Of a stretch of 44,075 nucleotides of DNA, positions 4,123 through 44,075 are shown in pieces. The DNA is taken from positions 1 to 44,075 of IMG/VR virus record IMGVR_UViG_3300002989_000038. One strand, written 5' to 3'. A model generated the notes under the pieces. That model made no database searches, was not told the origin of the DNA, and saw only the letters and a list, made by a program, of their open reading frames with translations. The position numbers were made by a program, and so were the translations under genes. Source of the stretch: a virus. Taxonomy: Duplodnaviria > Caudoviricetes. Every line of letters begins with the position of its first letter. Within the stretch, counting starts at the first letter, position 1.

Positions 4123-5781
4123 CTAAAATAGCTTATACTTCTCGTAATCCCCCCAGTAAGGGATTCCCGGCACCGTTTCCGAGGTATAGATGTCGCAGTG
4201 CGAAGTAAACCCTTTCCGCGTATTGATGTGAATTGAGGGGTGCTGGCTGCTCCAGGTTGCATGTGGGCCCTTCGGCTCCAGGACGTCGTGGGTTGTACTC
4301 CTGGATATGAAGTGAACCATCATCTGCTCGAAATGCGCAATAGCCTCGTCAAACCGCATGGTCATTTCATGGAGCGGCTTTTGCCCTGGACTGCTTTGCT
4401 TCTGCCAGCCCACAGCACAGATCCCTTCGTAATTCTCGTTGTTCATCACACCCGTCCCGAACTCTGGAAAGTCGAAGTAACCCTCGGGGTAGAGCACATC
4501 GTGCTCCAGGAAACTCACGTAATCATATGCCCCGCAATCTCTCGCCAGGTATAGCGCCTGAAGGATCTGCACGTTTATGTTAAGGTGCGTCGAGTTTGTC
4601 GCCATGGCGATCACTTCGGGGAACGGGTTATTGGGTATGGAGTACCATGGGCAAGTGATGATGTCGGCTTTGTCCTCCAGGAGCTTTATCCTGCCCAAAA
4701 CGGTTTCGAGCAGGGCCGGTTGCCCGTTGTTGGTGTAAAATATGCCGAGCTTGTTCTTGGTGGAAGCGGGCACTCTTAATATCCCATGTTCGCCGACCGT
4801 ATGCGTTGATACCACTCCGTCTACTTTGTAGCTGAGTATTAACTCTTTCCGGACTCCCGGACAGGGATCCCCACCGAGGTGCTCATTCCGGACCGGAAGA
4901 ATCAAGGTAGCTCCGATGCATTTCTCCCTGACCAGGTTTGTGACATCAACTCCGCCGTACTCCGCGGTTAAAATTTCCAGCCCCATCGGTGACTCCTGGA
5001 TCAAGTATGGTTTAATTTTATCGGCTCCGAAATGCTCAATGAGCGGTGCGAGATCTAGCCCCAACTCCTGGAACCCTATGGTGTAGTTGCGCGTGCGGTC
5101 CGCGTAATCGCAAGGGTAGGGGATATCCCCGTTGCTGACCTTGAAGAGGTGTACCCAGGACAAGAAAGGCAGGCACAGTACCTCCCTTCCGGCCTGCCGA
5201 AATTTGGTGTGAATATAGCCTTCCTCCCCGCCGAATCCGCGAAACTCCGGGTTGAACCCAAGCCAGGCGTCTTTTCTGCAGCCGAAAAGCCCGAGGCCAT
5301 GCATCAAAATTGGATAAGGATCAGCATCAGGATCCACCTTCGCGCCTCTCCAGACTCCCCACATGCCGTTACCCCATTGATCGCTGAGTGCGTCGGCCTG
5401 ATTAGTAAGGTCATCGTAGGTGAGAGGACCTTGGAGTAAGTCCATACATCCCTGGTTGGCACCTACCCACTCTTTAAATCTGGCTACTGCTCCAGGGGAT
5501 AGGAGGACGTGCGGATCAATGCAGATGACCCACTCAGCGGTAGCCTCGCTGAAAATTAAATCACGAGGGGCCGCGGTACCTTGCTTTTCCGTATAACGGA
5601 TGTATCTTGCCACGCCGAAGGCAGCTCCTTCGACAAAGCTCTTAAGGTGGTCATCGCCATAGTTATCGATGATCAATATTTCTACGTCGGAGAGGTCCTG
5701 GTATAGCCTTAGGGATTGGACGGTGAACCAAACCTCAGCTCGATTATTGTAACTCGCCATCCCGATTGTTAACCTAGGCAT
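4123..5781 (-). CDS. Multidomain glycosyltransferase: GT-A (GT2/GT27-like) + SUEL/DUF3395-like lectin domain + second GT-A-like domain
   Basis: 'LTIGMASYN', 'IIDN', 'CIDPH', 'GLFG', 'GFGGEE'; middle 'LEILTAEYG..DVT...GGDPCPGVRKEL.LSY'; C-terminal 'YVSFLEHDVLY'; overlaps the upstream gene by 13 nt. Confidence 0.8.
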   Translation of the reverse strand: MPRLTIGMASYNNRAEVWFTVQSLRLYQDLSDVEILIIDNYGDDHLKSFVEGAAFGVARYIRYTEKQGTAAPRDLIFSEATAEWVICIDPHVLLSPGAVARFKEWVGANQGCMDLLQGPLTYDDLTNQADALSDQWGNGMWGVWRGAKVDPDADPYPILMHGLGLFGCRKDAWLGFNPEFRGFGGEEGYIHTKFRQAGREVLCLPFLSWVHLFKVSNGDIPYPCDYADRTRNYTIGFQELGLDLAPLIEHFGADKIKPYLIQESPMGLEILTAEYGGVDVTNLVREKCIGATLILPVRNEHLGGDPCPGVRKELILSYKVDGVVSTHTVGEHGILRVPASTKNKLGIFYTNNGQPALLETVLGRIKLLEDKADIITCPWYSIPNNPFPEVIAMATNSTHLNINVQILQALYLARDCGAYDYVSFLEHDVLYPEGYFDFPEFGTGVMNNENYEGICAVGWQKQSSPGQKPLHEMTMRFDEAIAHFEQMMVHFISRSTTHDVLEPKGPHATWSSQHPSIHINTRKGFTSHCDIYTSETVPGIPYWGDYEKYKLF

Positions 5782-8700: not shown

Positions 8701-9116
8701 GTAAGCTCAGTGTAAGTCTGAGCAAAAGTTAGAATTTCCGAACCCACAGATACTATCTTCCCTTCAAAAAGCTCCTTCCCCTCATAGAACCTTAGCCGGA
8801 CCGTTACCGGCTGAGTGGCGCCTCCGTCGGAAACCCCGTAAAGCAAATTTAGGTTGAGGTCTAAATACGCGCCGTACCCGTCTGACCCGAGGCTCGACGT
8901 AGCGCCCAAAAACTGCACCGGTCGTGTAAAGATTGCCCCCCCCGCGGTTTGATGCCTTAGAAATCCGCTTTTCGGGATAGAGAGGACACCCGGCACGCTC
9001 AGCACCGCCTGGGCGTCGTTGCCCGAAATAACGGAGTTGAGCGCGTCTTTGCTTATCGTTAGTGGATGCGTCCACCCCGACAGAGTTATATTACTGGTCG
9101 TCTCAGTGACATTCAT
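5769..9116 (-). CDS. Large accessory/tail-associated protein: clan-D (GH27/GH36-like) glycoside hydrolase barrel, Thr-rich mucin-like linkers, Fn3/Ig-like domains
   Basis: 'FEVDYGWF', 'GLHAGGY', 'GFEYARIDF', 'VRTND' motifs; PTTTT/TTTAAP tracts; 'PGNGSITVS...ITGLNNG..W.I.V.AVNAYG' Fn3. Confidence 0.65.
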   Translation of the reverse strand: MNVTETTSNITLSGWTHPLTISKDALNSVISGNDAQAVLSVPGVLSIPKSGFLRHQTAGGAIFTRPVQFLGATSSLGSDGYGAYLDLNLNLLYGVSDGGATQPVTVRLRFYEGKELFEGKIVSVGSEILTFAQTYTELTYPVTATQYFTLSKSFDNNVQSEWANNTGSWQSPCNVASVGRFWGGPYASGQYSGLGPYVDPAVINYDMTSELFALYNKAYQFYAASTLISARVDKITAGFAVTTVPSWQGELEYNKWVSRNMTPKVRPAWQYRIPHYSVQHYGTVAGSGVWYYLPGEIENRISVIQSQNYPVSLFEVDYGWFDAIGSWNFTNGGLSAPDGITANMANFAGTGQSVVQYIKAHGLHAGGYATIDKGQYAAYDPTTPAGRLAIESVATQLYNLGFEYARIDFMYGNMAETFMAMAVFYNKMQTLKPDFFIEAHQPYFAPYVDSVRTNDQMDFFAGWQAVFKKKYKVGIVHAPNCVIDTDANGHDIWTSTITTSSALIEQIKMMMGYGRPEIYYMYGTFPTPAASNSSFTSAFQTAEPTLLSLMQQWDMLPKEVPTRTITNGFNTGFSTLLTYSNGSTVSWDENTGNLVINSASTSTTIMPGPTSTTTTTAAPATTTAAPGSTTTAAPGTTTTAAPGVTTTTAIPGTTTTAAPTTTTTAPTTTPGPDSTPDAFSFTPITGAALSSVQFSNSVIITGINTPTLVTAGIAAFQVNNSGSWIGLGMVNNGDSIIMRATASGSYSTTSSFTLTVGTASAVFSITTLNAPGPTGGSATPSGTQGIALNPGTYQGALSYKAYFTIDGSTPSLSHFYTSMSDVTGATVGGGFLQGVTYKFIFTAFTGVNNTGTESPASSVYTVIIPVPTTTTVAPIKPTVPQIALVPGNGSITVSLLSGGVGATSWRADWSNDPDVYWAMNDLGNVISGLPFTITGLNNGVSWHIFVVAVNAYGDSYSDIVSATPFAPITTTAMPTTTTTTTIATPTTTGAPTAPRSSVTFSNFSNTGTTTAGPATTTSTAAPTTSTSVPPPTTTTAIPTTTTARPTTTTARPTTTTTTAAPPPYVEISLGSFTTQIPVFTGGALEILTSSGVVAVALRDFGPIEINTSRGVKCLG

Positions 9117-30659: not shown

Positions 30660-32215
30660 GCTGCTGCCCCCTGTTGCTGGTCCGGCGCTTTTTTCGAGAC
30701 GATCGGCTTCAAAGCCGATCCTTCCGGGAGGTCCAGTTCCTTCGCCTTCTTGATCTCCCGGCTTCTCTGTGCGTACTGCGCTTCCCAGTCCTTACCGCGC
30801 TTGGCCGCGATATCGGCGTCGGTGATGATGTTGGCGTTCTTACCCATGATGGCGGCGACCATTTCTTTGACCGGGTCGAGGTTGGTGCGCTCGGGGACGA
30901 TCCAGGTTGCGGCGCAGTACTCCGCGCGGTGAGAATAGAAATCGGGGGCGCTCTTGGGGAGCCGGATATAGCCGCGCAGGAACGCCTCTTCCCAGACCAT
31001 TTCCCAGATGATCTGGCAGAAATAGGTGACCATCCAGTCCTGGTACATGCCGAAGACGCGCCATGCTTCCTCGAGGGCGGCGCGCGCGGAGGAGTAGTTG
31101 GTTTTGGAAAAGTCCTTGGCGATGACCTCGTAGGGCATACCGGCGGCAGCACCGGCTCCGCGTAGGATGGTCTCCACAAAAACGCCGAAAGAGTTTCCGG
31201 GTCGTGGGTTGGAAAGGAGGTTGGGCTTTTCCCCAGGGCGTCCGTACATGATGCTCGGACCGACTTCCTGATAGGTCTGGCCGCCCGGAAGTAGTGCCGG
31301 GGTCCCGAATTCATCTTCTGCCGAGTAAGGCGAGGACTGTTCGATGAATACCGGAAAGCTCGCGGCCATGATGGCGCCAACCAGCTCGAAATCGAGGTAG
31401 TCGGACATGTCCCGGAAGAACTTCATGGCAGGCGCGATGATGGAGACGCCACGCACGCTTTCCGGCACTTTTTTGTGAAAGCGGTGGAACACCTGAGGAC
31501 GGTGCCCAAGCATGGGGGGAATCTCGCGGTAGAAACGAAGATCGAGCGAGGTCGTGAAGCGTCCGTCCTCAGGGTCGGCTATGAGATACCCGGTCGGCTG
31601 ACCCATATTGCCCAGCCGGATACCGTCGCGGATTCCCTTGGTGGCGGTGAGCCCCATGGGGGTGCGCAGACGGACCGGGTCGAGTACCTGCAGCGCCAGG
31701 GAGTAGCGGCGCGACGGGTCGTCGGTCATGAGCGGGAGGTTCAGGAACTCACCGTTTACCAGCAGGGAATAGATATTCTGAAACTGCAGGCCGTAGAAAT
31801 TGCAGGTAGCCGTCTCGGCGCTGGGGGCGGAAGCGTCGGCGGTCTTATTGAACTGTTCGAACTCCCACTCCATGGTTTCGGCCAAGCCCTGGGCCTGCTC
31901 CTCGGTGATACCGAGGCGCTTCCAGTTCGGTTTGGACTGAGGCCAGAGGCCGGTACCGATGGAGTTGGTGGCGATGGAGTCGATGAGACCGGCGCCGTGG
32001 GCGTTATTGGCGGCGATGTCGTTGGCGCGATCGGCTATTACCTCGCGCTGGCGACCTTCTTCCGGCCATGTGAGACGACGGGGGGACCAGTTGGAGAGGG
32101 TACCGGAAGCTCCGCCACCGGTGCGGCCGATGGCGGCAGCGCTCTTTCTGGGGGCAGTAACATCCTGGGCGCGGGGGGCAGCGTAGGATCGGCCTATACG
32201 GCAACCGTTACTCAT
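30656..32215 (-). CDS. Portal protein, lambda family
   Basis: 'RA.D...NN....G', 'H.F......RG.S..AP', 'G.PYE....DFS.TNYSSARA.L.E', 'DP.KE'; ATGA overlap with W. Confidence 0.93.
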   Translation of the reverse strand: MSNGCRIGRSYAAPRAQDVTAPRKSAAAIGRTGGGASGTLSNWSPRRLTWPEEGRQREVIADRANDIAANNAHGAGLIDSIATNSIGTGLWPQSKPNWKRLGITEEQAQGLAETMEWEFEQFNKTADASAPSAETATCNFYGLQFQNIYSLLVNGEFLNLPLMTDDPSRRYSLALQVLDPVRLRTPMGLTATKGIRDGIRLGNMGQPTGYLIADPEDGRFTTSLDLRFYREIPPMLGHRPQVFHRFHKKVPESVRGVSIIAPAMKFFRDMSDYLDFELVGAIMAASFPVFIEQSSPYSAEDEFGTPALLPGGQTYQEVGPSIMYGRPGEKPNLLSNPRPGNSFGVFVETILRGAGAAAGMPYEVIAKDFSKTNYSSARAALEEAWRVFGMYQDWMVTYFCQIIWEMVWEEAFLRGYIRLPKSAPDFYSHRAEYCAATWIVPERTNLDPVKEMVAAIMGKNANIITDADIAAKRGKDWEAQYAQRSREIKKAKELDLPEGSALKPIVSKKAPDQQQGAAA

Positions 32216-32454
32216 CGGCGCGGCCTCCCGGGGAGAAACTGGGGGGCTGAGCCGAGGACGAGCCTGGAGCGTTCTACCTGGAGCCACTCCAGCTGCTTGC
32301 GTAGCTGGGGGAGATCCTCGGATGTCACCTCGCGGTCGGTACCGCCGGTATTGAGGCGGACGCGTTTGCCGCCGGCAACGTCGAGCATCGCGACTTTAAA
32401 GGCCGCGATCTGGGTGTCAAGCTCTTCGGATGTGAATAACGGGGTGATTGCCAT
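32212..32454 (-). CDS. Head completion protein (gpW-like)
   Basis: 80 aa; 'A......G..V......R.VT..DL..L...L..L'; directly upstream of portal. Confidence 0.75.
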   Translation of the reverse strand: MAITPLFTSEELDTQIAAFKVAMLDVAGGKRVRLNTGGTDREVTSEDLPQLRKQLEWLQVERSRLVLGSAPQFLPGRPRR

Positions 32455-32488
32455 GGCGCTACAGTATTATCAAAAAGAGATACTGTCA

Positions 32489-32524
32489 GTAGACACCATG
32501 GACACTGTGGACACTATGGACAAC
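32489..32524. repeat. Four 9-bp direct repeats upstream of the head operon (regulator binding sites)
   Basis: GTAGACACC ATGGACACT GTGGACACT ATGGACAAC; on the minus strand followed by TGATAAT, 11 nt before the W ATG. Confidence 0.75.
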
Positions 32525-32572
32525 TATTTTTATTTATTGCATTATTTTTATCTAATAACTTACCTTAAAAAA

Positions 32573-32794
32573 CTATTCCGCTCTTCTCATAAGGTCTATT
32601 TTAGAAGATTCTTTGTAGGCTTTAACTACTACAGACGGGACACAGATTCCCTGCCGGCCACCGAAGCGAAACGCCGGGGCAAGCTCGCCCCTATCAATGA
32701 GATTGTATATGTGCTGCCGGCATACTCCTAAGAACTCGGCAATCCTCGCTACCTTCATCATTTCTTCACTTTTAAAAACCTGCGGCTGCTCCAT
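32573..32794 (-). CDS. Xis/AlpA-like helix-turn-helix protein (HTH_17-like)
   Basis: 'M.VARIAEFLGVCRQHIYNLIDRGEL.AFRFG'; start at 32794 (SD GGGAG), alternative 32809. Confidence 0.8.
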   Translation of the reverse strand: MEQPQVFKSEEMMKVARIAEFLGVCRQHIYNLIDRGELAPAFRFGGRQGICVPSVVVKAYKESSKIDLMRRAE

Positions 32795-32820
32795 AACATC
32801 TCCCTTCATTGCATGGTTAA

Positions 32821-34719
32821 CTATCGGCGGTTGCTAAACCAATTGGGCAAACTGGCTTTTTGCGGTATGACTGCCTTATGTGGGACCGGCGACGGTTCTG
32901 CACGGCCAATCTGCGGCACTTTGGAGCGGATCCTGATGATATCTGCCGCGGCGAAGCCGTAGACTTTGATATCGAAAAAATGGTTTGCCTTTCCATTGGG
33001 GCAGATCCAGTAACCGCGCTCGTCCTGGTACTCTGCACAGAGCTGCCGGGCATAGCCCATATCGGTGGACATCTCGGCATGCAGGTGAATGGACCCGGGG
33101 GCGCCTGGATGCAGCTTCAGCTTCCCGGCCAGCTGGTTCTTGAACATAGTTACGTTAATGGTATAGAGGTTCAGCCCACCGCCGGGGATCGGGATCTTCT
33201 TCCCATCGCGGCTCGGGTAGTAGTCCAGATGAGTGACCCTCCAAGGCGCGCCGTCCCGACTACCCTTAAGCGGCTTGAAGATCGGGTTATCGCTGCAGAA
33301 CTCATAAACCTCCTTGGTCCGGCTGTGCTTCGGCTTCGAGGGGTTAGTACCGCCGCCGGAGTCGATGAAAGCGGCAAATATGCCGTGCTCAGCGCCCCGG
33401 GCTGTTTTAAAACGCTGCTCGGAAAGTTCCTTCAACTGGTCGAAACTCTCCGCGTAACCATGGTCTATGGTCCAGCTCTCCAGATTCTTACCGGGGGCAA
33501 ACGCGACCACCTCATAGTAAAAACCTACCTGCTGGGTATCGACCAGGAGTAGCAGGCAGTGGATATCCGCCGGTACGATCTCGCGGGGCATGGAGGGATC
33601 GACAAACGAGAGAATCTCGCTTTCCTTGCGCGTGGTTCGCTCGGCTTCGTATTTTTTGGCCCGGTAGGAGTTGTCCAGCTCGATCTGGTCGGCGATATCT
33701 CCGGAGCGCGCTTTGACAATGGCGGCCGCGTACTCGGAGAGCGAGATATCCGGGCAGATCATGGCATCGATGATGAAACCGACGGAGACGGGACGCGCGA
33801 CCTGTGTACGAGCCTTCCAGCGACCGAGGCGCACGGCCCGGTCCCGGTCCATGTCGTTCCAGAGGACTCCGCAGCCGTCGCAGGCATAGCGGGCAGATTT
33901 ATCATTGATTAACTGCTTCGGATCTACCTCTGGCTGCGATGGGGGGAGTTTTCCGGACAATTCCATCTGACCCGGCCAGGCAAGGTGGTCCTCAACCATT
34001 TTCTGCTCTTTCGCACAATGGGGACAGACTACCTGGTAGTCGAGTTGCTCCATGCAGGCGTCGAACGCTTTGCTAATCAGCGAACCGGAGCCCGCGGGGG
34101 AGCTGCACTTGATCTTCTTGGGGCGGCGGAAGGTGGTAGCTCGCTTCTCCATCAGGTTGAGCGCATGGGTCTCCTTGCCGGCTAGGTCTTCGTTCTTATC
34201 GACCTCGTCGGCGAATACATCATCGGCGGGGAAGGAGGAAATCTCCGAGGGGGAGGAGCCCCAGACGGGATAGATGACGGTGCCGTCGCGGAAGGCGATC
34301 CGGCTGGCCGTGGTATCGTCCGGATTGGCGGAGAGCTTCTTGGCGACCGGAGCGCACATGCGGTAGATCGGTATCAGGCGGTCCTTGGCGATCTTCTTGG
34401 CGAGGTTCTCCTTGGGGAGCATCACGTATTTGACGTTGCCGCCACGGTAGACGATCGCGTAGAGGTGCATGTTGATGCAGCCGTTGGATTTTCCGGACTG
34501 CGGGACACCGCAGACGACGATCTCCTGCACCCAGGGGAGGTTGTAGGTATCCATGATCTGGGTCAGATAGGGCGTGATGGAGTTATCCCAGTCGCCCTGA
34601 TGTTGGCCAAGGGTCACCTTTCGGTGCTTGGCGGCGAATTCGGAGACCTTGAGGGGCTCCTTCTGGCGCCAGATCTCCAGTTCTCCCGGGAACCAGCTAT
34701 GCGCAAGGGCGATTGTCAC
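32821..34719 (-). CDS. Terminase large subunit (GpA family)
   Basis: 'TPYL..IMD', 'QSGKS', 'ADEVD', 'R..TF', 'CPHC', 'VDTQ', 'IDSGG', 'NH.FD..VY..AAA'. Confidence 0.95.
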   Translation of the reverse strand: MTIALAHSWFPGELEIWRQKEPLKVSEFAAKHRKVTLGQHQGDWDNSITPYLTQIMDTYNLPWVQEIVVCGVPQSGKSNGCINMHLYAIVYRGGNVKYVMLPKENLAKKIAKDRLIPIYRMCAPVAKKLSANPDDTTASRIAFRDGTVIYPVWGSSPSEISSFPADDVFADEVDKNEDLAGKETHALNLMEKRATTFRRPKKIKCSSPAGSGSLISKAFDACMEQLDYQVVCPHCAKEQKMVEDHLAWPGQMELSGKLPPSQPEVDPKQLINDKSARYACDGCGVLWNDMDRDRAVRLGRWKARTQVARPVSVGFIIDAMICPDISLSEYAAAIVKARSGDIADQIELDNSYRAKKYEAERTTRKESEILSFVDPSMPREIVPADIHCLLLLVDTQQVGFYYEVVAFAPGKNLESWTIDHGYAESFDQLKELSEQRFKTARGAEHGIFAAFIDSGGGTNPSKPKHSRTKEVYEFCSDNPIFKPLKGSRDGAPWRVTHLDYYPSRDGKKIPIPGGGLNLYTINVTMFKNQLAGKLKLHPGAPGSIHLHAEMSTDMGYARQLCAEYQDERGYWICPNGKANHFFDIKVYGFAAADIIRIRSKVPQIGRAEPSPVPHKAVIPQKASLPNWFSNRR

Positions 34720-35438
34720 TCTGTCTCAGCTCCAAAACTGGTTGATTGCGCGTAGCGGTCGAGCCACGCGTCGAGTTTGCGGTCGTATTCGTCATGGAGA
34801 TCCGGAATGACCGCCTGCAGATTGATATCCTCCACGTCCAGCCCCTGTGCCCTCAAATAATCGGAGATAACGTCGACCAGCTGGTCACAGAGTCGGGGGC
34901 CGAAGTTGCCGAGGTCCTTTTTTAAAAAAGAAGCGGCGGCGGCGCAGCGCTGCTCTACATCAGAGCGCAGGATATAGTTTTTACGGGTGATCTCGTTGGC
35001 GAGGGTCAGCTTATCGGCCTGTTCCTTCATGTAGCGGTTTTTGTGGTCGGTGTCCTCTTCGTTTGCCGGCTGACACGGCTTACTCGGGTTCTCCCAGGCC
35101 TGCGCCGCATAGGCCTCGATCTCGTTTTTCAGGTAGCTGCCGTCCTTCTGCTTGCGGGGGAAGCCGGTGGAGCGGTCTGCATGGTTTCGAACGGTGCGCG
35201 CGCTCACCAGGTACCCGGCGCCCGCGATCCATGCAGCGGCCTGCTCGATGTTTTTGAAGCGCTCGCCGCTCTCGGCCTGAGACTGACCCGACAGGAAGGT
35301 ATCGAGCGCTTTCTTCGCTGCCGAGTAGGCCTTGATGTTGGCCGTGCTCGGGTCGGTCGCCATAGTATCCATCGCCGTGACTAGATTGGTCTTAAGGGCA
35401 GACTCGAGGTCGGCTATGCGGGCGTCAACGTCGGTCAC
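34716..35438 (-). CDS. Putative terminase small subunit
   Basis: Winged-HTH-like segment then coiled coil; overlaps the terL start. Confidence 0.6.
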   Translation of the reverse strand: MTDVDARIADLESALKTNLVTAMDTMATDPSTANIKAYSAAKKALDTFLSGQSQAESGERFKNIEQAAAWIAGAGYLVSARTVRNHADRSTGFPRKQKDGSYLKNEIEAYAAQAWENPSKPCQPANEEDTDHKNRYMKEQADKLTLANEITRKNYILRSDVEQRCAAAASFLKKDLGNFGPRLCDQLVDVISDYLRAQGLDVEDINLQAVIPDLHDEYDRKLDAWLDRYAQSTSFGAETE

Positions 35439-35749
35439 TTTATTCTCCGAACCATCTCATCGATAATGCGCTGGGCTACTACCTGGACGTGAAGAGCCTC
35501 CCGGAGGATGCCGTGATCACCTTCCAACTCGTTGAGCCACAGGGCAAGCTTGAGCTCGCGGACTTCGCGCTCAAGGTGCCGCGGCATCTCCCAGCGTTCG
35601 AGCGCGGCCCATTCCTCAGGAGGATGCTTTACCGTGGCGGCAACATACTCTTTTGCGAATGCCACGCCCAGATATACGAGCCGAGCGGGTGCATAGCTTT
35701 GGTCCTGATATTCTTCTGTCAGTTTTGTATATCCGTTGCTACCGCTCAC
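35435..35749 (-). CDS. Hypothetical protein
   Basis: Strong SD GGAGGAGGAG, GTG start, overlap with terS. Confidence 0.65.
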   Translation of the reverse strand: MSGSNGYTKLTEEYQDQSYAPARLVYLGVAFAKEYVAATVKHPPEEWAALERWEMPRHLEREVRELKLALWLNELEGDHGILREALHVQVVAQRIIDEMVRRIK

Positions 35750-35765
35750 TACCTTCTCCTCCTCC

Positions 35766-35813
35766 GGTTTAACCCGGCGCTCGACCGCGAGGCGGTCAGC
35801 TTATCGTTAAACC
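35766..35813 (+). other. attC-like recombination site 1 (48 bp)
   Basis: GGTTTAAC-CCGGC-GCT(C)GACCGC-GAG-GCGGTCAGC-TTATC-GTTAAACC: terminal inverted R boxes, unpaired spacers, inner stem with one extrahelical base. Confidence 0.7.
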
Positions 35814-36487
35814 GCCCCCACCAGAGTGTCGATGAAATCACCGATTTTCATTCCGACAGGGCATTTACTTTCCAACAGTTTCCAATTCACACCATCGTTG
35901 CCATCTACCGCATCGAACGCAGCAGCTCGGCATTCCTCGCAAACTTCGACCGTGGTAGCCGGAACCACACCGCAACGCTCGCAAGAGCCATCGCCAGGAT
36001 GAGGAACTAGGGATTGCAACCGCGACACCTCTGCCAGAAGCCGTAGCCCTGATTCTTCTCTCGCACGAACCTGCTTATCGGAAGATTCAATCAAACTTTG
36101 CAGATTGGCGACATGGGCTTTGTTCGCACCTTTTTCAATATTGAGCCGATGATCGGCAAGTTTCAGCGCCGTTCTCAACTGCTCAACCTCAGTGGCGTGC
36201 CGATCAAACGACATGCACACCCAGCCATCTTTAAGCCCGTAGCCGTCCAGAATGTGGGTAACCTCGGCATAGAGCTCGCGGTGGGTGTAATTCAGGGGTT
36301 TGCCAGGGGTCCGGTCGTTATGCAGAGGCTTGTCCCTCATTTCCTCCCCTGTATGCACGGTCTCTCTCAGGTAAAGCGTATCCCCTACCAGGAAGTTACG
36401 GTCATTGAAGCGGATTTCAAAAGTCTTGCGACCGTCAAGAACCGCTTGAAAAACTTCGCGGTCCGTCTTCAGTTCATGTCCCGCCAT
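35807..36487 (-). CDS. DUF3850/ASCH-like (PUA fold) protein with coiled coil and CxxC-CxxC
   Basis: 'HELK....FQAV.DG.KTFE.R.NDR.F.VGD.L.LRE', 'VTHIL..YGL..GWV.MS'; stop TAA inside the site 1 R box. Confidence 0.85.
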   Translation of the reverse strand: MAGHELKTDREVFQAVLDGRKTFEIRFNDRNFLVGDTLYLRETVHTGEEMRDKPLHNDRTPGKPLNYTHRELYAEVTHILDGYGLKDGWVCMSFDRHATEVEQLRTALKLADHRLNIEKGANKAHVANLQSLIESSDKQVRAREESGLRLLAEVSRLQSLVPHPGDGSCERCGVVPATTVEVCEECRAAAFDAVDGNDGVNWKLLESKCPVGMKIGDFIDTLVGAV

Positions 36488-36505
36488 GCTGTCGCTCCTT
36501 GCGCA

Positions 36506-36553
36506 GGTTTAACACCCGCTCGTGCCTGTCGGCACAGCTAAATTCGTTAAACC
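36506..36553 (+). other. attC-like recombination site 2 (48 bp)
   Basis: GGTTTAAC-ACCC-GCT(C)GTGCC-TGTC-GGCACAGC-TAAATTC-GTTAAACC. Confidence 0.7.
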
Positions 36554-36557
36554 GACT

Positions 36558-36770
36558 CTATTTCAAGCCCTTCAGCGCGGTATTCCTAATATCCCTGCCG
36601 AGTCCTGAAAGCTGTTCATCACCCATACGCTCAACGATCTTGATCAGTGCAGCCCTCGCGACCGTATCAGCGACAGCCCGTAATCTGCACCCTCGCTGGT
36701 ATCCAGCATAAAAAGACACGGCACAAGCCAGGAAGAGGCCACTCCAGAACTGGAAAGCTAATTCGCTCAT
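36558..36770 (-). CDS. Small membrane hypothetical protein
   Basis: N-terminal hydrophobic helix; ATGA overlap with the upstream gene. Confidence 0.6.
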   Translation of the reverse strand: MSELAFQFWSGLFLACAVSFYAGYQRGCRLRAVADTVARAALIKIVERMGDEQLSGLGRDIRNTALKGLK

Positions 36771-37384
36771 GGCCGCACCGCCTCTGCCAGCACATCCAAC
36801 GGCCTCACCAGGCTAGAACTCTCGGGGTGGTACTTCAATAATTTACGCAGCACAAGGTACCGAACCGCCTCGCCAACCATCTCCTTTGCCTCGTCCGGTT
36901 CAGGGGTGGTGATGTCATACCAGACTCCGATATGTGGCCCACTGTGCCGAGCACCTTCGCAGTAGCACTCGATATCGGAACGGGCAGAAGCATACGCGAT
37001 AGACTGCTCCAGCTGGTACAGCTCGCCACCAATCAGCTTTCCGTGACTTTTCGCCATCAGCTCCCATGCCTTGCTCTTGGTTTTCAGGCGCTCCATTTCT
37101 TCCCGCAGATCCTTCTCGTACATTTCCAGGCTCTCGATGAAGGCCATCACGTCCAATGCGCTATAGACAGAAGAGACCGAGACGGTAACATCTTCTTGGT
37201 CAAGCTCATCAGCTTTGTCCGCCTCTGCCAGCAGGTACGGCGAGACGATCCCGGCCACACGCGTTACGTCTTTCTTGCGCGCTAAGTAGAGAGCCGCTTT
37301 GTGCTCCGGTGACCCTGCCTCAAGTTGCTCACCCAGCAAATGAGAGTTACTGCCATCAAATAGTGCATCTGCTTTTCCCATCAT
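36767..37384 (-). CDS. Hypothetical protein
   Basis: 205-aa ORF with SD GAGGAG immediately after the site 3 R box. Confidence 0.7.
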   Translation of the reverse strand: MMGKADALFDGSNSHLLGEQLEAGSPEHKAALYLARKKDVTRVAGIVSPYLLAEADKADELDQEDVTVSVSSVYSALDVMAFIESLEMYEKDLREEMERLKTKSKAWELMAKSHGKLIGGELYQLEQSIAYASARSDIECYCEGARHSGPHIGVWYDITTPEPDEAKEMVGEAVRYLVLRKLLKYHPESSSLVRPLDVLAEAVRP

Positions 37385-37395
37385 CCCCTCCTCAG

Positions 37396-37446
37396 GGTTT
37401 AACCAATCGCTCGTCCGCTACGCGGCCAGCTCTAAACCACTAAACC
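37396..37446 (+). other. attC-like site 3 (right end degenerate)
   Basis: GGTTTAAC-CAATC-GCT(C)GTCCGC-TAC-GCGGCCAGC-TCTAAACC-ACTAAACC; the GTT of the right box is missing. Confidence 0.55.
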
Positions 37447-37886
37447 TCAATTACCGGCGGCCGCCCCTCGTATCGCTGCCACGCCGCCAGGTGCCATTTT
37501 TCCCAAATCCTTAACTGCTCAAGCAGCTGCACCTCATCCTCTGCCGCAAATGCCACATCGACTGCAGCACTTGCCTGTGCTAAACGGTCCAATACATCCA
37601 GGCGGTTCACCTCAAGCCACTCGAGGGCTCCGCTCGGGCATATGGAGATCACCCGGCTATAGGTATCGCTGATGAGTTGCTGCATTTTGTCGGTCTGAAA
37701 TGATTTCCCATCGACCGCGCCGGAAAGAGAAAACCCGCAGGACTGGCACTTACCAGCATTTTCCTCCAGATCGATGCGGAAGCGGACAGCTCCGCCGCAT
37801 TCAGGGCAGGGCCCTGCATACTGTCCGGGGGATAATTCCCTGTAGTTTCCGAACTTTTTTACCAGGTCTAAGATCATTATTGGCAC
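37440..37886 (-). CDS. Primase-type zinc-ribbon protein
   Basis: 'YAGPCPECGG..RF........CQSCG' resembles the primase/helicase Zn-binding domain. Confidence 0.7.
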   Translation of the reverse strand: MPIMILDLVKKFGNYRELSPGQYAGPCPECGGAVRFRIDLEENAGKCQSCGFSLSGAVDGKSFQTDKMQQLISDTYSRVISICPSGALEWLEVNRLDVLDRLAQASAAVDVAFAAEDEVQLLEQLRIWEKWHLAAWQRYEGRPPVIEV

Positions 37887-37894
37887 CCTGCTCC

Positions 37895-38142
37895 TATTAT
37901 TACGCTTCAGTCCGGCTTATTACGCTTATGATTACGATTTAAGTACTTAATATTATGTTGTTATTACGCTTATTACTTGATTACGATAGGCATATAACGC
38001 GCGCGAACGTTCTTTATATGTTATGGGTTTACCCTCGCGCATATACGCGGGGGATGAATAAGCGTAATAAGCGTAATAATCTTTAAAAATCAATGATTTC
38101 ATGCGTAATAACTCCCGTAATCATGCGTAATAACCGTAATCA
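37895..38142. promoter_or_regulatory. Putative phage replication origin with inverted iteron arrays
   Basis: Six ATTAC(G/T) on the left (37899-37985) facing six CGTAAT on the right (38063-38140); AT-rich; directly downstream of the primase-helicase. Confidence 0.8.
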
Positions 38143-40539
38143 AATCTCGAATTTACCCGCTTTTGCGAACTCAAAATAGCAACACGTTAGCCAATCCTCT
38201 TGCGTCTGGCCTTCAGCACGCCGCCAATCCTCGCTGAGCAGGTGATCAGGTGGCACTACCATCTTCCGGCTGATACGCGTCGTACTATTCAGATCCTCTA
38301 GGGTGGTGAACGGCCTGCCGGATAGCCATCCTGGTTGCATATTGAGGTCCCCCATAAATTGCCGGTAGACCCTGGGCTTGGGCTCGTTGTTCCATTCACA
38401 GGATTTTTTGTAGACACTGAACAGCTGGGTGCCCAAGCACGGGCAGAAGGGTATCCCCGGTACGTCTCCCTGCTGCCATGCCCGGAGGAATGCCGAGACA
38501 CTATCCATGCTGACGTTAATCAGCTGCTCCTTGGCACGGGTCAACGGCGGCTTGGTATGTGGGTTAAACCCGCCTAGATCGAGATGCAGTAGGTAGTGAT
38601 GTAGCGCAGCAACACCTCCGCTCCGGATCTCTTCATGCACCTGACCATAAAATTTTTCGTCCAGCTTTTCCGGTGTATGGACCACTGTGTAGCGCCGGTC
38701 GTCCTTCTCCAATACCAAGGGCTGAGCCTCATTAGATAGGAAGGCCAGATTGACGTGGTTCCGCTCATCATGGGCCATGACATTTTTAGGGTTTATCCGG
38801 ATCCACTCCCCGGTGACGAGGCCTTTTAACTTATTTTTGACGTGGTAAAGCTCCGTGCGCGCGACGACCTCATCTGCGATGAGGAAAAGTTTTTTGCTCG
38901 CCCAATCATTAAATTTATCCTCGATCGCTGACTGGTCGACGATGCGGCCATAATCGCCGTAGATAGACATGATCGCTTCAAAGAACAGGTTTTTACCAGT
39001 CCCCTGCCCCCCGTGGAATACAAGTGCCGTCCGCATTTTCGCGCCGGGGAACTGGATAGGGTAGGCAACCCACTTAAGCACCCAGTCGTAAACCGAAGCT
39101 GGGTCCTCCTCATTGCTGCACAGATACTGGAGCAGTTCCAGGAGACAATCGCAGCAGCCGGCTTTGGGTTCGGTCGGCCAGCCACCCCATAGGTTGCAGA
39201 GGATGCGCGGATCGGTGCCCGCAGGGTCGAAACCGACTTCCTCGAGGCGCACGACTCGCTTCTTATCGCGCATGTCGCGCCACCCGTGCTCGGGGAGGAT
39301 GTCCAGGACGTCTGATTTCGGTACTAGGATATTCTCCTGATGGTCAAACATTGTGGCCTTTCCGCCGTAGACCAGCGAATATCGGTCTATCGCCTCATCA
39401 ATGGTGATCATCGATTTCAGCGAAGCACGCTTTCCCCCGCCCCCTACTGGTGTCACTTGGCGCGGCTTTTCGTCCCAGCCAAGCTCATTAACCCGGGCCT
39501 CTATCTGCTCGGCAACCAGAGAGATGCTCTCCAGACAGTGCAAGTCGTTGAAATCGGTCGGTCCCTTTGCATCGGTGGGGCGATCCGCAGTGAAGCGCGG
39601 CTTGATCCAGGCACCATCGGTAGCGACTGCCGCGGCTTCAGCATTGAGGACTCCGGCATTGGTTTTCTTGTGGGGCTGGCCACAGTGCAGGCAGGTATCG
39701 GTCGCCACCGTAGTGAACTTATGGCAGGCGTCGCACTTCTGCACCCAGTCGTCATCGGCGCAGATCAGCTGGTGCGCTCGGCGGTACTTTTTTTTAAGGG
39801 CCTGGGCTGCAGGCATGATGTTATTGGCGGACCAGACAGCAGCGCAGGGAAGACCGGTAGCCTCATGAAGGGTCGCAGCAGTCGCGTAGCCCTCGGCAAG
39901 GAGTAGGATCCGGCCCGAAGCCTTGCCTATTAGGTGGTAAGTCCCCCGCATCTGCAGGCCTTTGGGCCAGAATTCCTTGTCCCGGCCAGTCCTGGCTATG
40001 CGCTCATGTCCTCGAGGCAGGATAAACTGTAGCCCCCGGATGGAATTACGGTCATCACACATGGGTACAATGACGGCGCCGGTCTCGCTGAACCGGACGC
40101 CATGGGCGCCGACCTGCTTGCGGTCGAGGTATTCGCTGTCACCATCTAGCTGGCTGGCTGCCCAGGTCTTGGCGGCACGCTTGGACGCCAGGTCAGCTTC
40201 GCGCCGGCGCTCAGCCTCGGCCTGCTTATTGGCTTCCCGGTGTCTCACCTTTTGCGCCAGGAGCTGCTCGGGGGTCAGGTGCCCCCGTTTCTCCTTGGAG
40301 AGCGCGATGGTCTGTTTGCCATTATCGGAGCCTCGATAGATCCCGTATGCACCGATGACGAGGGAGTCGCCCGAGACGTTCAGGCAAGAGAGCCAGTACC
40401 AGCCCCGCTTTTCCCGCGGGCTGTCCTCAGTCCTGCAGCGAACGGGGCGCGCAGTGTCCACCAGGAGCTGATCAACAATAAGCCCGTAGTCACGCATCTG
40501 GCTGAGCGCGTCATCATGGTTAGAAAAATCAGGCACCAA
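38140..40539 (-). CDS. Primase-helicase (TOPRIM primase + SF3-like helicase)
   Basis: 'YL.RK.V', 'LQFI', 'AEGYATAATL.EA', 'CADDD', 'TDFNDL', Walker A 'GGQGTGKN', 'ADEV', 'DRRY.V'. Confidence 0.92.
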   Translation of the reverse strand: MVPDFSNHDDALSQMRDYGLIVDQLLVDTARPVRCRTEDSPREKRGWYWLSCLNVSGDSLVIGAYGIYRGSDNGKQTIALSKEKRGHLTPEQLLAQKVRHREANKQAEAERRREADLASKRAAKTWAASQLDGDSEYLDRKQVGAHGVRFSETGAVIVPMCDDRNSIRGLQFILPRGHERIARTGRDKEFWPKGLQMRGTYHLIGKASGRILLLAEGYATAATLHEATGLPCAAVWSANNIMPAAQALKKKYRRAHQLICADDDWVQKCDACHKFTTVATDTCLHCGQPHKKTNAGVLNAEAAAVATDGAWIKPRFTADRPTDAKGPTDFNDLHCLESISLVAEQIEARVNELGWDEKPRQVTPVGGGGKRASLKSMITIDEAIDRYSLVYGGKATMFDHQENILVPKSDVLDILPEHGWRDMRDKKRVVRLEEVGFDPAGTDPRILCNLWGGWPTEPKAGCCDCLLELLQYLCSNEEDPASVYDWVLKWVAYPIQFPGAKMRTALVFHGGQGTGKNLFFEAIMSIYGDYGRIVDQSAIEDKFNDWASKKLFLIADEVVARTELYHVKNKLKGLVTGEWIRINPKNVMAHDERNHVNLAFLSNEAQPLVLEKDDRRYTVVHTPEKLDEKFYGQVHEEIRSGGVAALHHYLLHLDLGGFNPHTKPPLTRAKEQLINVSMDSVSAFLRAWQQGDVPGIPFCPCLGTQLFSVYKKSCEWNNEPKPRVYRQFMGDLNMQPGWLSGRPFTTLEDLNSTTRISRKMVVPPDHLLSEDWRRAEGQTQEDWLTCCYFEFAKAGKFEI

Positions 40540-40936
40540 CGACCTCCGCCAGAGCCTGGAACTTTGCCTGCCAGCTGCGCACGGTGTCCTTGTGGACGGC
40601 GATGACCTTAGCTATTTTTGCCGGGGGTACTTCAAGCTCCGAAAGGACCGCAAGAAGGTAGATTTCACGCGGGTCAAGCTGGGAAGCCTGGAGGATAGTT
40701 CCCGTCAGGGAGGTGAAAAAGCGGCCGCACCCCTTATTCGGGCACTGGATCCGCTCGCACTGGTACCAGCGGCCGAGGCGCTTCTCGTCGGTCAGCTCAG
40801 TCTGGCAGTGCGGGCAACGCTGTCCGGTCGGGTGCAGCTGGTCGATGACCCAGTGACCAGCGCCCAGCCAGGAGAGATCGTCGGCAGAAAACTTAGCCAG
40901 GCACTTACCAGCGGACAAACCAATAATATCACTCAC
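40529..40936 (-). CDS. Zinc-ribbon + HTH protein resembling the IS1595/IS1 transposase N-terminus
   Basis: 'CPHC...QC...C.R.F..LTGT.L..S.L....' then 'IAK...V...TV..W'; no DDE domain. Confidence 0.65.
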   Translation of the reverse strand: MSDIIGLSAGKCLAKFSADDLSWLGAGHWVIDQLHPTGQRCPHCQTELTDEKRLGRWYQCERIQCPNKGCGRFFTSLTGTILQASQLDPREIYLLAVLSELEVPPAKIAKVIAVHKDTVRSWQAKFQALAEVVGA

Positions 40937-40990
40937 TTTTCAGCCCTCCGAAAAATTGCAACTCAAAAAAAGTTCACACGTAGCGAATTG

Positions 40991-41036
40991 ATGAGGGTCG
41001 AACTACCCGCATAGGGGAGACCCCCAGGGAGGACCC
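40991..41036 (-). other. Putative cos site (cosQ + cosN)
   Basis: Minus strand GGGTCCT (identical to lambda cosQ), 17 bp, then partial dyad ATGCGGGT-AGTTCG-ACCCTCAT; fits the GpA-type terminase. Confidence 0.7.
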
Positions 41037-41132
41037 GCGCCTTTAATGAGAGGATTTGGCACGTCTCTAATGATCTGGAAGGACGCGCTCCTCACGAGGG
41101 GGCGCGGGGGGAGAGGGGCGGGCTGTCTGGCA

Positions 41133-41963
41133 TCAATGACTGGCACGGTATGATAACTCCCTGGTGATCTCGGATTGTACCGAGCGTGCTACGTCAGAGC
41201 GCAGGCTGGCATCGACTATGCGCTGGCCTATGCCGAAGAAATCGAGACGCGGACGGTAGGTCGGCGCGTTGCGAGGGAACAGCACAACAGGCTGCAGTCC
41301 CCTCGGGTAGAGTGCAAGGGTGCGGTCGCGTAGGGCCCTCAGCCCGCCCTTGATCTTGCCCTGCTTAGTCAGTGCACGGCCGAGCAGATAGCGCCCGGCC
41401 CGCCCGCCCGCCTCATCACCTACAACCCTCTGGTAGATACCGGCAGGGAGCTTTCCTCTTTGACTGAGAAGCCGAAAGAACTCTTTCTTCTTGCCTGCCG
41501 AGCGGGCATTCATAGCAAAGCCGACATCGTGGAAGCCGCCCGAGATGGAGAGCAGCTTGGTGATCTGGCCTCTGCCGAGGTTCCCGTATTGGTCGAGCGT
41601 AGCGTACTTGCTCGGGGTGATAAACCGCCCGCCCATTCCCATCTCGAAAGGCTTTAAGGGGCGGCTTCCACCATCCACCTGCGGCAGAAGGAAGTGATCT
41701 TTCGTACCGAGGTTCGGCGGATCCTTGAACCAGACCTTGGCTTGGAGCGGTCCGCCTGGTGCGCGCGCAGGCGTCAACTGCAGGCTGTTCATGGTGAACG
41801 GCGTAGGTCGGTCGAATACAGAGGCCATTGCCGTCTGGAGCCCGCTCTGAACCCTGCGCGCGGTCGTATTGACACCGTTGGCAGCAGCATAAGGAATCTG
41901 CCGCTCCATTCCGGTCAGCCCCTGCAGCAAGTCGTCGATGCCCTTAATCTTGATTACAAACAT
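41133..41963 (-). CDS. Phage morphogenesis protein (tail completion / gpZ-like), basic
   Basis: 'QIPYA.A...N.TA..V', 'FDRPTPFT.NS', 'L.PQV.GG.R..K.FE', 'Y..RLDF'. Confidence 0.6.
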   Translation of the reverse strand: MFVIKIKGIDDLLQGLTGMERQIPYAAANGVNTTARRVQSGLQTAMASVFDRPTPFTMNSLQLTPARAPGGPLQAKVWFKDPPNLGTKDHFLLPQVDGGSRPLKPFEMGMGGRFITPSKYATLDQYGNLGRGQITKLLSISGGFHDVGFAMNARSAGKKKEFFRLLSQRGKLPAGIYQRVVGDEAGGRAGRYLLGRALTKQGKIKGGLRALRDRTLALYPRGLQPVVLFPRNAPTYRPRLDFFGIGQRIVDASLRSDVARSVQSEITRELSYRASH

Positions 41964-42151
41964 GCCGTCCGTCCAAGATGATTGCTGGGAAGTCCGCAGG
42001 TAGCAGAGGGGGGAAAGGGGGCAGGGCTAGAGGCATTGGAGCGTGCCACGAGCTCATCGATGATGGTTCTTACGATGGATCTGGTGACGAACGGGAACCA
42101 TGTGATGACAAGGTAGATTATCAGTTGTTCGATCAGCTTCTTCATCTGCAT
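41954..42151 (-). CDS. Small hypothetical protein
   Basis: 65 aa, SD GAGG, overlaps the next gene. Confidence 0.45.
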   Translation of the reverse strand: MQMKKLIEQLIIYLVITWFPFVTRSIVRTIIDELVARSNASSPAPFPPSATCGLPSNHLGRTACL

Positions 42152-42244
42152 TCCTCAGTAGTCAGTGTTGCCAATTGAACCTTCGAGTCTAGGGCACATT
42201 GTCTGTGCCCTAAAGTCCAACCTTCAATCTGCACTCGTCGCTCG

Positions 42245-42964
42245 TTATGCCAGTATTACAGTCCCTGCCGGCAGTTTCTCTGCCAGCCAACCGCGGATCC
42301 CTTCGACTGCTTCCTGTTCCCAGTTACCGCCGTCCGCTTCATGGAGCACGCACAGCGGGCCCTGGTTCCCGCCCTTCGAGATCCTGAAGACGAAGGCGCT
42401 CTCAGGCTGTTCGACCTCATGGAAAGTACGGTACGGCGCCAACCTCACGGGGTTGGGGACATCGACAGTTCCGAGTCGGGCGATGCCCGTCTTCGCCGTT
42501 ACCTGCTGGCCTATGCCGTCATCGGTGTAATCCACGGCGGACTGGTCAGATAACGAGCTGACCAGTTTTTGCAAGGCTTTCGTGGTCTCGGTCGGGACGA
42601 AGAAGGCCTGCAGAGATACGATGAAATTTCCAACATCCATCGATCTGCCAAACGGAAAAGCCCGAGGCGTGCTTTTAGCCTCGAGGTAGTCGTGACGGTC
42701 GAGCCACGGTTCCAGGGCGGGCGACATCAACCTGACCTGTACCGGGCTGGCCACATGGACGATTACAGCGGCAAGATCCAGCTCGTCGGGATTACGACCG
42801 AGGTAATCGGAGATCGCCACCAGGCTGCCTACCTGGAATGACTTCTGGGTAGGCGGATGGATCGGGAATGTTTTACCGTTGGCGGTAAGGTATTCGCGTT
42901 CCCCGATCTGGAAGCGTTCGACTTTCGCCAGTTCAAGTATCTTTTCAATGCCCTCTTTGATCAT
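42245..42964 (-). CDS. Conserved phage early protein (YfdQ/DUF2303-like)
   Basis: 'DDG..Q.VT.KTG', 'VPNPV.L.PYRTF.EV.QPES.FVFR', 'L.EADGG.W'. Confidence 0.65.
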   Translation of the reverse strand: MIKEGIEKILELAKVERFQIGEREYLTANGKTFPIHPPTQKSFQVGSLVAISDYLGRNPDELDLAAVIVHVASPVQVRLMSPALEPWLDRHDYLEAKSTPRAFPFGRSMDVGNFIVSLQAFFVPTETTKALQKLVSSLSDQSAVDYTDDGIGQQVTAKTGIARLGTVDVPNPVRLAPYRTFHEVEQPESAFVFRISKGGNQGPLCVLHEADGGNWEQEAVEGIRGWLAEKLPAGTVILA

Positions 42965-43320
42965 ATCTTCTTAACCTCCCCTGCTACCGATCTCAGAGGC
43001 GTCGGCTCGGTGATGGGCAGCTTGAGCTGCTCCGGATCGTACTCTGTCGCGATACCCTTGCCGCGTTCCTTACCGACGAATATCTGGGTAGCGAACGGTT
43101 TGGCACTGGCCAGCGAAGCAGAACAGGAAATGTTTACTTCGCAGAAAGTACGCGCACTGTTCGGTTTCAGCTTCACCTTCAAGGTAACTGTGCGGGCGCC
43201 CTCCCCGGTGTTCACATCCAACACGTTATCCAATGCGCGCTGGAACTCGTCATCAAAGCGCTCAATGGCGCCGCCCCTGCCTAAGTTCGCCAGGGATACT
43301 AAATCCGGCTGCTCATTCAT
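42961..43320 (-). CDS. Conserved phage early protein, partner of the preceding gene
   Basis: 'G.A.ERF..E......N..D.NT....R.VTL....KP'; ATGA coupling. Confidence 0.65.
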   Translation of the reverse strand: MNEQPDLVSLANLGRGGAIERFDDEFQRALDNVLDVNTGEGARTVTLKVKLKPNSARTFCEVNISCSASLASAKPFATQIFVGKERGKGIATEYDPEQLKLPITEPTPLRSVAGEVKKI

Positions 43321-43333
43321 GATGCCCCCTCTT

Positions 43334-43678
43334 TTAATTGATACCTGCACCCGCATATGCGGGGGAAACCCCGCTATACGTCATCCTGCGAAGCCTATTT
43401 TCTTCCCGCTCGCATATCCACGCTACCTGCAGAAACATCGAGGCACAGCCTCTGATGGCCTCAGCAAAATCTTTTTTATCACCATCTACCGCTGCAATGG
43501 TCAGCGCGGCCTTCGCCTCATGCAGGTAGCGGTCGAGATCCGGCCGGTCGTCCTGGAGCCAGTCAAGGGACTCGGCAGGGAGGCACTCCTCAAGCAGCTG
43601 CACCAGGTCTTCGGCTGCACGCTTCATTCTGGCTTGGCTGAGCTGGGATGGTTGTGCGATCTTTGCCATCATATCCAC
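43334..43678 (-). CDS. Hypothetical protein
   Basis: 114-aa helical ORF in the co-oriented cluster. Confidence 0.55.
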   Translation of the reverse strand: MDMMAKIAQPSQLSQARMKRAAEDLVQLLEECLPAESLDWLQDDRPDLDRYLHEAKAALTIAAVDGDKKDFAEAIRGCASMFLQVAWICEREENRLRRMTYSGVSPAYAGAGIN

Positions 43679-43833
43679 CCGAGTCGGTAACTGTCGTTGG
43701 TACCCTCGCGCTTACAGCTCTTGCTCGTAATCTTGCTGATGTGGGCCGTCTGGCGCACGGCCTGGACAAACTCCTCAGGGGTAAGGCTATGCCCTTTATC
43801 GGGGACGTAGGTCTCCGGTTCCCTAAGCAGCAT
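43669..43833 (-). CDS. Small hypothetical protein
   Basis: Likely start MLLREPETY at 43833; overlaps both neighbours. Confidence 0.4.
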   Translation of the reverse strand: MLLREPETYVPDKGHSLTPEEFVQAVRQTAHISKITSKSCKREGTNDSYRLGWI

Positions 43834-44071
43834 GGCGCACCAGGCTATATTCCTTACTGATGAAGAGGAGATGAAGTAGCTCGATGATAGTTGAAGTCCC
43901 GACACCGATATCTACGAGGCGGCCGTACATCTCCGACTCGAATTCGAGAACCACGGCAGTCTCCGGTAGGGGAGGATCCGGGATAACTACCAGGGCCGCG
44001 ATGACTGCGCTCAGAGTAGTACAGGCGGCTACCTGGTCCAGGGGGGGGGGGAGGAGAAGTAGCTGCTTCAC
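43823..44071 (-). CDS. Hypothetical protein
   Basis: 82-aa ORF at the window edge, co-oriented. Confidence 0.45.
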   Translation of the reverse strand: MKQLLLLPPPLDQVAACTTLSAVIAALVVIPDPPLPETAVVLEFESEMYGRLVDIGVGTSTIIELLHLLFISKEYSLVRHAA

Positions 44072-44075
44072 GTTG

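Follow-up and report, generated by a model that had tools for sequence, protein, structure and literature searches.

attC-like hairpins ahead of inverted cassette genes in a lambda-like phage: a likely integrase-less array of a phage-borne integron

The window, i.e. the whole stretch of DNA that was analysed, is a 44,075-bp contig of a lambda-like phage and accounts for the entire record, although the genome may be incomplete. According to Pfam and PHROG searches of the window, the minus strand carries all of its genes for primase, terminase, portal, capsid and tail. An array of attC-like hairpins (S1, S2 and S3; Table 1) sits in an accessory region between the primase gene (38140-40539) on one side and the small terminase gene (terS) on the other. 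Elsewhere, two family 2 glycosyltransferase genes were noticed, a low-GC one on the strand opposite to the phage genes (2887-3870, plus strand) and one in the tail region (4123-5781, minus strand); both are possible surface-modification morons.

Table 1. Coordinates of the array and of its surroundings in the window.
Feature	Position	Strand	Description
Small terminase subunit (terS)	34716..35438	-	phrog_57; conserved anchor downstream of the array; relatives 73-93% identical
104-aa gene	35435..35749	-	Behind S1; overlaps the small terminase start
S1, attC-like, 46 nt	35767..35812	- (bottom, G-bulge strand)	Bulge at 35782 (C on the plus strand); spacers 5/5
S1 predicted crossover	35806/35807	-	Immediately behind the TAA stop codon that ends the DUF3850 gene
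Cassette A, predicted, 740 bp	35807..36546	-	S2 hairpin, RBS, DUF3850/ASCH-like gene 36487-35807 (226 aa)
S2, attC-like, 46 nt	36507..36552	- (bottom strand)	Bulge at 36521 (C on the plus strand); spacers 7/4
S2 predicted crossover	36546/36547	-	Placed by attC rules
Cassette B, predicted, 893 bp	36547..37439	-	S3 hairpin, RBS, 205-aa gene 37384-36767, 70-aa gene 36770-36558
S3, decayed attC-like	37396..37446	- (bottom strand)	Bulge at 37412; AAC box reads AGT on the minus strand
S3 predicted former crossover	37439/37440	-	Register from the L153 homolog
148-aa zinc-ribbon gene	37440..37886	-	PF08273; upstream anchor of the array; stop codon abuts the S3 crossover position
Origin-like region	37897..38142		Two facing clusters of short TTATTACGC inverted repeats adjoining the primase gene; putative function

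The gene of cassette A matches DUF3850 (E 1.5e-19) and phrog_986, and its TAA stop falls within the R box of S1; the boundaries of this cassette were derived from attC rules and from comparison with relatives. Neither gene of cassette B gave a Pfam or PHROG match, nor did the three plus-strand ORFs scanned across the array. On the minus strand, every site is succeeded by a purine-rich RBS and then by a start codon. Within cassette B, a gene-end linker of 24-29 nt with overlapping stop and start (36763-36790, minus strand) also occurs between unrelated genes in L030, L039, L141 (twice) and L142, with a looser copy in L036, and is probably a boundary of homologous recombination inside multi-gene cassettes. 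Residues 120-204 of the 205-aa protein form a module that is joined to differing N-termini in L030, L032, L036, L143 and L158.

S1 and S2 are built alike. Inside outer R boxes of 8 bp come an unpaired spacer, a stem of 3 bp, a single bulged base and an inner stem of 5-6 bp, which stops short of any second bulge. Their outer boxes read RYYYAAC/GTTRRRY with 7/7 pairs in each site; S3 does not conform to this pattern. On the plus strand, the bulged base is a left-arm C. The extrahelical G is therefore on the minus strand, as the first-pass annotation had pointed out; it lies in the 3' arm there, and this is the strand on which the DUF3850 match is encoded. The position of this G, set off by a spacer of 5 nt (S1) or 4 nt (S2) plus 3 bp, is that seen in aadA7 and TJE1, and the minus strand of S1 and S2 shares its bulge layout with the bottom strand published for attC aadA7 (Qi et al., 2023; PMC9892861, Table S3). 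Extrahelical bases are described as determining strand choice in attC recombination (PMC5027507).

Both strands of S1 (35766-35813) and S2 (36506-36553) fold, with DNA folding z-scores of -3.5/-2.8 and -2.9/-2.75, respectively, and the bottom strand is more stable than the top one (-13.2 vs -12.4 kcal/mol for S1 and -11.3 vs -10.0 kcal/mol for S2), as it is in 36 of 45 phage sites. A structural scanner retrieved only these two sites from the window, with scores of 15 and 16, and 30 shuffles of it contained no site that scored 11 or more; it should be noted that the scanner itself demands pairing, and the pair counts of scanned sites are therefore circular. S3 has the polarity of S1 and S2, but the AAC/GTT box at its right end is lost, and its folding is not beyond chance (z 0.32/-0.79). 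Because the homolog of S3 in L153 retains the AAC triplet, the register of S3 and its former crossover position can be fixed.

S1 is identical at 44 of 46 nt in the relative L030, while the 46-mer of S2 is found unchanged in the provirus L141, where it precedes an unrelated gene. Although loop sequences vary among the relatives, the R boxes, bulge and pairing of S1 and S2 stay perfect. The length of both sites is below that of the shortest experimentally tested site that we have seen (50 nt, TJE1), and the spacers on the crossover side measure 7-9 nt in 25 of 43 hairpin bodies, as compared with 5-6 nt in aadA7 and TJE1. Judged from their sequences, S1 and S2 look recombination-competent and S3 looks dead; cassette B is likely to be fixed because S3 has decayed.

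S1 and S2, 740 bp apart on one strand, make the array a CALIN under the usual rule (no neighbouring intI, and at least two attC sites that share a strand and lie within 4 kb). It is not a complete integron, since the window gave no IntI match, nor was an attI-like motif found from terS to S1. Unlike classical cassettes, in which the ORF is on the attC top strand and the attC follows its stop, the ORFs of the window are on the bottom strand.

Five viral relatives were retrieved with the small terminase as query. Two of them, L031 (85% identity in terS) and L034 (73%), carry an integron integrase of 387-388 aa upstream of terS and on the same strand, which matches TIGR02249 at 339 and 342 bits, respectively (cut-off 265, applied to these two proteins only). 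The phage IntI is 41% identical to IntI1 over 316 aa, and in the L034 record intI is distinct from a second tyrosine integrase. The 104-aa gene of the window occupies the place that is taken in the IntI-carrying relatives by intI and a gene of 88-91 aa. A scan of metagenomes with the terS alignment returned five loci, all already known, and a search with an IntI alignment returned 38 viral loci, of which 14 of the 37 tested had terL or portal homologs. The 100% complete provirus L141, which bears the identical S2 hairpin, has no IntI.

The coding order in the relatives is cassette array, attI-like site, intI and small terminase, on one strand throughout. The attI-like motif (GATAA/TATAA/GTTAA-N5-6-GTTR, on the anti-coding strand and without a hairpin) is located 47-69 nt before the intI start in 13 of the 13 loci listed, which were chosen from the phage clade, and a similar pattern recovers a site 124 nt upstream of intI1 in a class 1 control. 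We read this motif as a putative attI. In L031 and L034-L047, an IntI with I2-region and catalytic motifs (the conserved residues are presumably the catalytic ones) is found together with an attI-like site upstream of intI, as in complete integrons; the motif is absent from L036 and L043. In L036, which carries IntI, the last cassette junction (8810-8860) lies about 180 nt from intI.

In a quick tree of 78 IntI rows, 14 sequences (13 viral and one from a MAG contig) formed a group with an SH-aLRT value of 98, and the remaining viral IntIs were scattered; the sample was query-biased, and the tree does not speak for a single origin. About 80 of the 120 closest IntIs listed are 385-389 aa long and extended at the C-terminus by about 45 aa (e.g. 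L034:7589-7729 and homologs); this extension gave only sub-threshold hints of a RelB/FitA ribbon-helix-helix.

The survey of bulge orientation against gene orientation in phage arrays, suggested in the first-pass annotation, revealed a non-random pattern. An initial pattern scan of viral loci had yielded scanner-passing sites in L003 only (1 of 29 loci). In 39 viral loci, some of them redundant, all 32 sites scoring at least 11 have their bottom strand on the intI/terS coding strand, and shuffles gave none. The same was true for 8 of 9 sites in 65 bacterial IntI loci. The polarity of site to integrase is thus classical, and the inversion resides in the genes rather than in the sites. The reversed polarity claimed for the window therefore stands as far as the attC bottom strand being the coding strand is concerned, but has to be reworded, because relative to intI and attI the sites are classical and it is the ORFs that are inverted.

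This is borne out by the family matches of the ORFs flanking the sites (Pfam/PHROG): 19 of 63 bottom-strand ORFs matched in phage loci as against 1 of 17 top-strand ones, and 1 of 5 as against 4 of 7 in bacterial IntI loci (the scan took in every one of the 24 top-strand ORFs and 68 of the 76 on the bottom strand, without alternative starts and the window's own genes). An early tally of stop codons (19 inverted, 2 classical and 5 unclear among 26 redundant rows) is superseded by these matches. In six whole records, local coding is on the bottom strand at 12 of 14 sites and on the top strand at two, and L143 is an exception in having a top-strand HTH gene at a site. An RBS followed by a start codon was counted on the bottom strand at 36 of 45 phage sites and on the top strand at none, the bacterial controls giving 3 and 1 of 9, but these counts carry little weight because the bottom-strand search window was wider and the measure is weak in the controls.

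Two controls were examined with the structural scanner, namely phage TJE1, which has three sites, and the class 1 cassettes of MH445380. In both, the coding strand carries the C-bulge form, which follows the stop codon; the class 1 and bacterial controls agree with the established view, on which the first-pass annotation had relied, that in classical cassettes the extrahelical G is on the non-coding strand. In attC1 and attC2 of phage PH101 (NC_029094, 75915-77984; attC2 is present twice) and in attC1 of P12002L (NC_028924, 30000-30060), the bottom strand is instead the annotated coding strand.

Two further groups of sites were noticed in the relatives. Longer sites (L060:2196-2315, L061:5004-5124, L036:8120-8225 and L146:761-853) have a predicted start codon within the hairpin loop, so that their 3' arm would encode the N-terminus of the protein. 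Hairpins of the same family also occur between terminase and portal genes (L032:5247-5295, L141:2300-4399 and L153:2998-3778), a second insertion hot spot.

The extent of a cassette can be read from the attI junctions. A hairpin upstream of attI was found in 5 of the 13 attI loci and none was detected in the other 8. In the five loci, the attI R box agrees with the far box of the upstream hairpin at 9, 9, 7, 10 and 9 of 10 nt, as compared with 5, 8, 7, 7 and 5 for the near box of that hairpin. Given that attI, which lacks a hairpin, is located at the end with the stop codon, a hairpin and the gene downstream of it must make up the first cassette. Among 17 adjacent pairs of sites, R boxes at the two ends of a cassette agree more closely than those of a single site (means of 4.3 and 2.9 of 5, respectively), with several matches of 10/10 and the opposite trend in two pairs; this is the trace expected of circular intermediates.

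Breakpoints point to the same boundaries. The homology between the window and L030, which comprises S1, the 104-aa gene and terS (89%), stops at 35814, two nt beyond the S1 R box, and the four sites of L030 carry other genes than those of the window. A contig 97% identical to the window over 37440-38500 ends at 37440, which is the S3 crossover position. At S2, the cassette ends in a tail similar to that found at the attI junction in the IntI-carrying L031. The attI junctions, the breakpoints and the non-random orientation in relatives together support the proposal of the first-pass annotation that each cassette carries its hairpin upstream of the gene and crosses over beside the stop codon. 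No excised or empty form was seen among the contigs of two sequencing runs; run X1 may be the one from which the window derives, and the other records of run X2 appear to be phages already among the loci.

We are therefore fairly confident that S1-S3, which have attC structure with the G-bulge strand as the coding one, are what is likely an integrase-less CALIN of a phage-borne integron whose genes are inverted for reading in the phage operon. The genes of the array would likely be swapped by integron recombination while being read within the phage's own operon. IntI would bind the folded coding strand and recombine it at AA|C, and the incoming cassette (hairpin, RBS, gene and stop) would enter just behind the TAA stop, leaving the upstream gene whole. 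Transcription would come from upstream phage promoters and each cassette would bring its own RBS, which would make a Pc unnecessary. Considering that a mere 50 nt or so separate attI from the intI start, the array, intI and terS would be one operon; a classical cassette inserted at such an attI would be antisense to this operon, and selection would favour inverted ORFs. The phage of the window may have lost intI or never held it and, since the L141 provirus also lacks it, such arrays would need the enzyme in trans, from the host or from a co-infecting phage.

One and the same hairpin precedes different genes in the window (S2) and L141, and again in L146 and L150. Such shared hairpins and multi-gene cassettes with common linkers indicate that homologous recombination also reshuffles the region. 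It could be argued that this is all that is left, i.e. that the hairpins are no longer used by an integrase and persist as translation-start modules and as homology patches for exchange by RecA or a phage recombinase. We consider this rather doubtful. The lack of IntI in the window, the decay of S3, the occurrence of an identical hairpin with its RBS before unrelated genes and the second shared linker at the end of a gene would all be accounted for, but not the perfect R boxes, bulge and pairing that S1 and S2 preserve despite changes in their loops, nor the breakpoints at the crossover side, nor the likeness of the S2 cassette tail to an attI-junction tail in a phage that does carry IntI. That the hairpins are RNA regulatory elements, such as processing sites or attenuators, which merely resemble attC, is highly improbable. 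On the transcribed strand, each is indeed closely followed by an RBS; however, the linkage to intI and attI and the cross-cassette complementarity of R boxes make sense only for DNA recombination, an Rfam scan of 32000-44075 gave a single chance match and nothing relevant, and a promoter and terminator scan of 35300-38300 stayed at chance level, with no terminator-like call at the hairpin sites.

Replication might also have selected the polarity. The first-pass annotation had placed an origin less than 0.5 kb from S3 and had suggested that the reversed design suits the direction of replication. The inverted repeats do lie about 450 nt from S3 and form a putative origin; their facing clusters resemble P4-type origins. 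On this account, the attC bottom strand would be the lagging template of a fork from the nearby origin, which would raise cassette turnover, and the geometry would fit for a fork heading to terS; lagging-template placement has been reported to favour the folding and excision of attC (PMC5371416). The direction of the fork, however, coincides with that of transcription, and the hypothesis makes no separate prediction, co-transcription with the phage operon being enough to explain the layout. Moreover, the polarity is unchanged in the close relative L030, whose primase module differs. In record G002, where the cassettes run counter to the structural genes beside them, it is again the local coding direction that the bottom strand follows (no replication gene was found among the 14 proteins of G002 that were scanned, and its origin was not located). 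We therefore regard selection by replication as unlikely and retain expression from the phage operon as the more probable reason for the inverted genes.

If a phage lineage has its own IntI, attI and reversed cassettes, integron chemistry would have been rebuilt for expression in a phage operon, giving phages site-specific sampling of accessory genes; cargo near the sites in relatives includes methyltransferases, HNH nucleases and NADAR and DUF genes. The very short phage sites bear on the question of the minimal attC. The origin of new cassettes is considered an open question (PMC8618304), and an identical hairpin before unrelated genes makes one route testable. It is conceivable, and we propose it only tentatively, that these phages are cassette factories, in which a hairpin-plus-RBS head joins accessory genes ending in TAAC and the phage IntI shuffles the products between phages during infection. 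If this were true, de novo cassette formation would be visible, along with a phage-only pool of cassettes that bacterial integrons cannot express.

In the common view, an integron cassette is a promoterless gene that has attC behind it and is expressed from Pc, and its orientation is secured by strand selectivity (PMC5027507). No description of reversed cassettes was found in the literature covered, which lay outside subscription journals and included the available parts of PMC13323075, PMC5737381 and PMC8876359. The closest precedent is the study of phage integrons by Qi et al. (2023; PMC9892861), which reports CALINs and in which 5 of 6 phage sites recombined with IntI1, the bottom strand better than the top; attC1 and attC2 of PH101 behaved in this way, and attC1 of P12002L failed in the assay. 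Since the PH101 sites map as the reversed type, strand-biased recombination of such sites is already in print, uncommented as far as the accessible text goes, in which no remark on bottom-strand ORFs was found. As described there, these CALINs resemble the window in having short attC sites between accessory genes, often without an integrase, and the set includes methyltransferase cargo. The TJE1 sites are classical, while those of PH101 and attC1 of P12002L are inverted like those of the window. The complete integrons of that set, as presented, are captured host or class 1 platforms, unlike the phage-clade integrons considered here.

Two other known arrangements are similar in part. In the inverted-integrase integrons of Cury et al. 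(2016; PMC4889954), as far as they are described there, intI and the cassette genes run in the same direction, as in the phage loci; the sites differ, as all 32 phage sites have their bottom strand on the intI/terS coding strand. Off-target insertion at attG sites (Loot et al., bioRxiv 10.1101/2022.09.11.507474), to judge from the accessible account, would explain isolated sites elsewhere in the relatives (in L032, for example, one separates terminase and portal) and also outermost junctions departing from the R consensus. The window is unlike attG, in that its S3 junction mismatches the GWT consensus and attG events use no dedicated attI.

Classical integrons, both class 1 and sedentary chromosomal, share with the phage loci the IntI family, an attI just upstream of intI, the match of R boxes across the cassette and the placement of the attC bottom strand on the intI-coding strand. 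In contrast to classical integrons, the phage cassette genes run in the direction of intI and not divergently from it, and the hairpin heads the gene; intI is part of a phage operon before terS, 47-69 nt from attI; the sites are not as long, whereas their crossover-side spacers are longer; and the closest IntIs are extended by about 45 aa at the C-terminus. The phage integron variant, with classical sites and integrase, reversed cassette genes and a location in the phage operon, is real and non-random.
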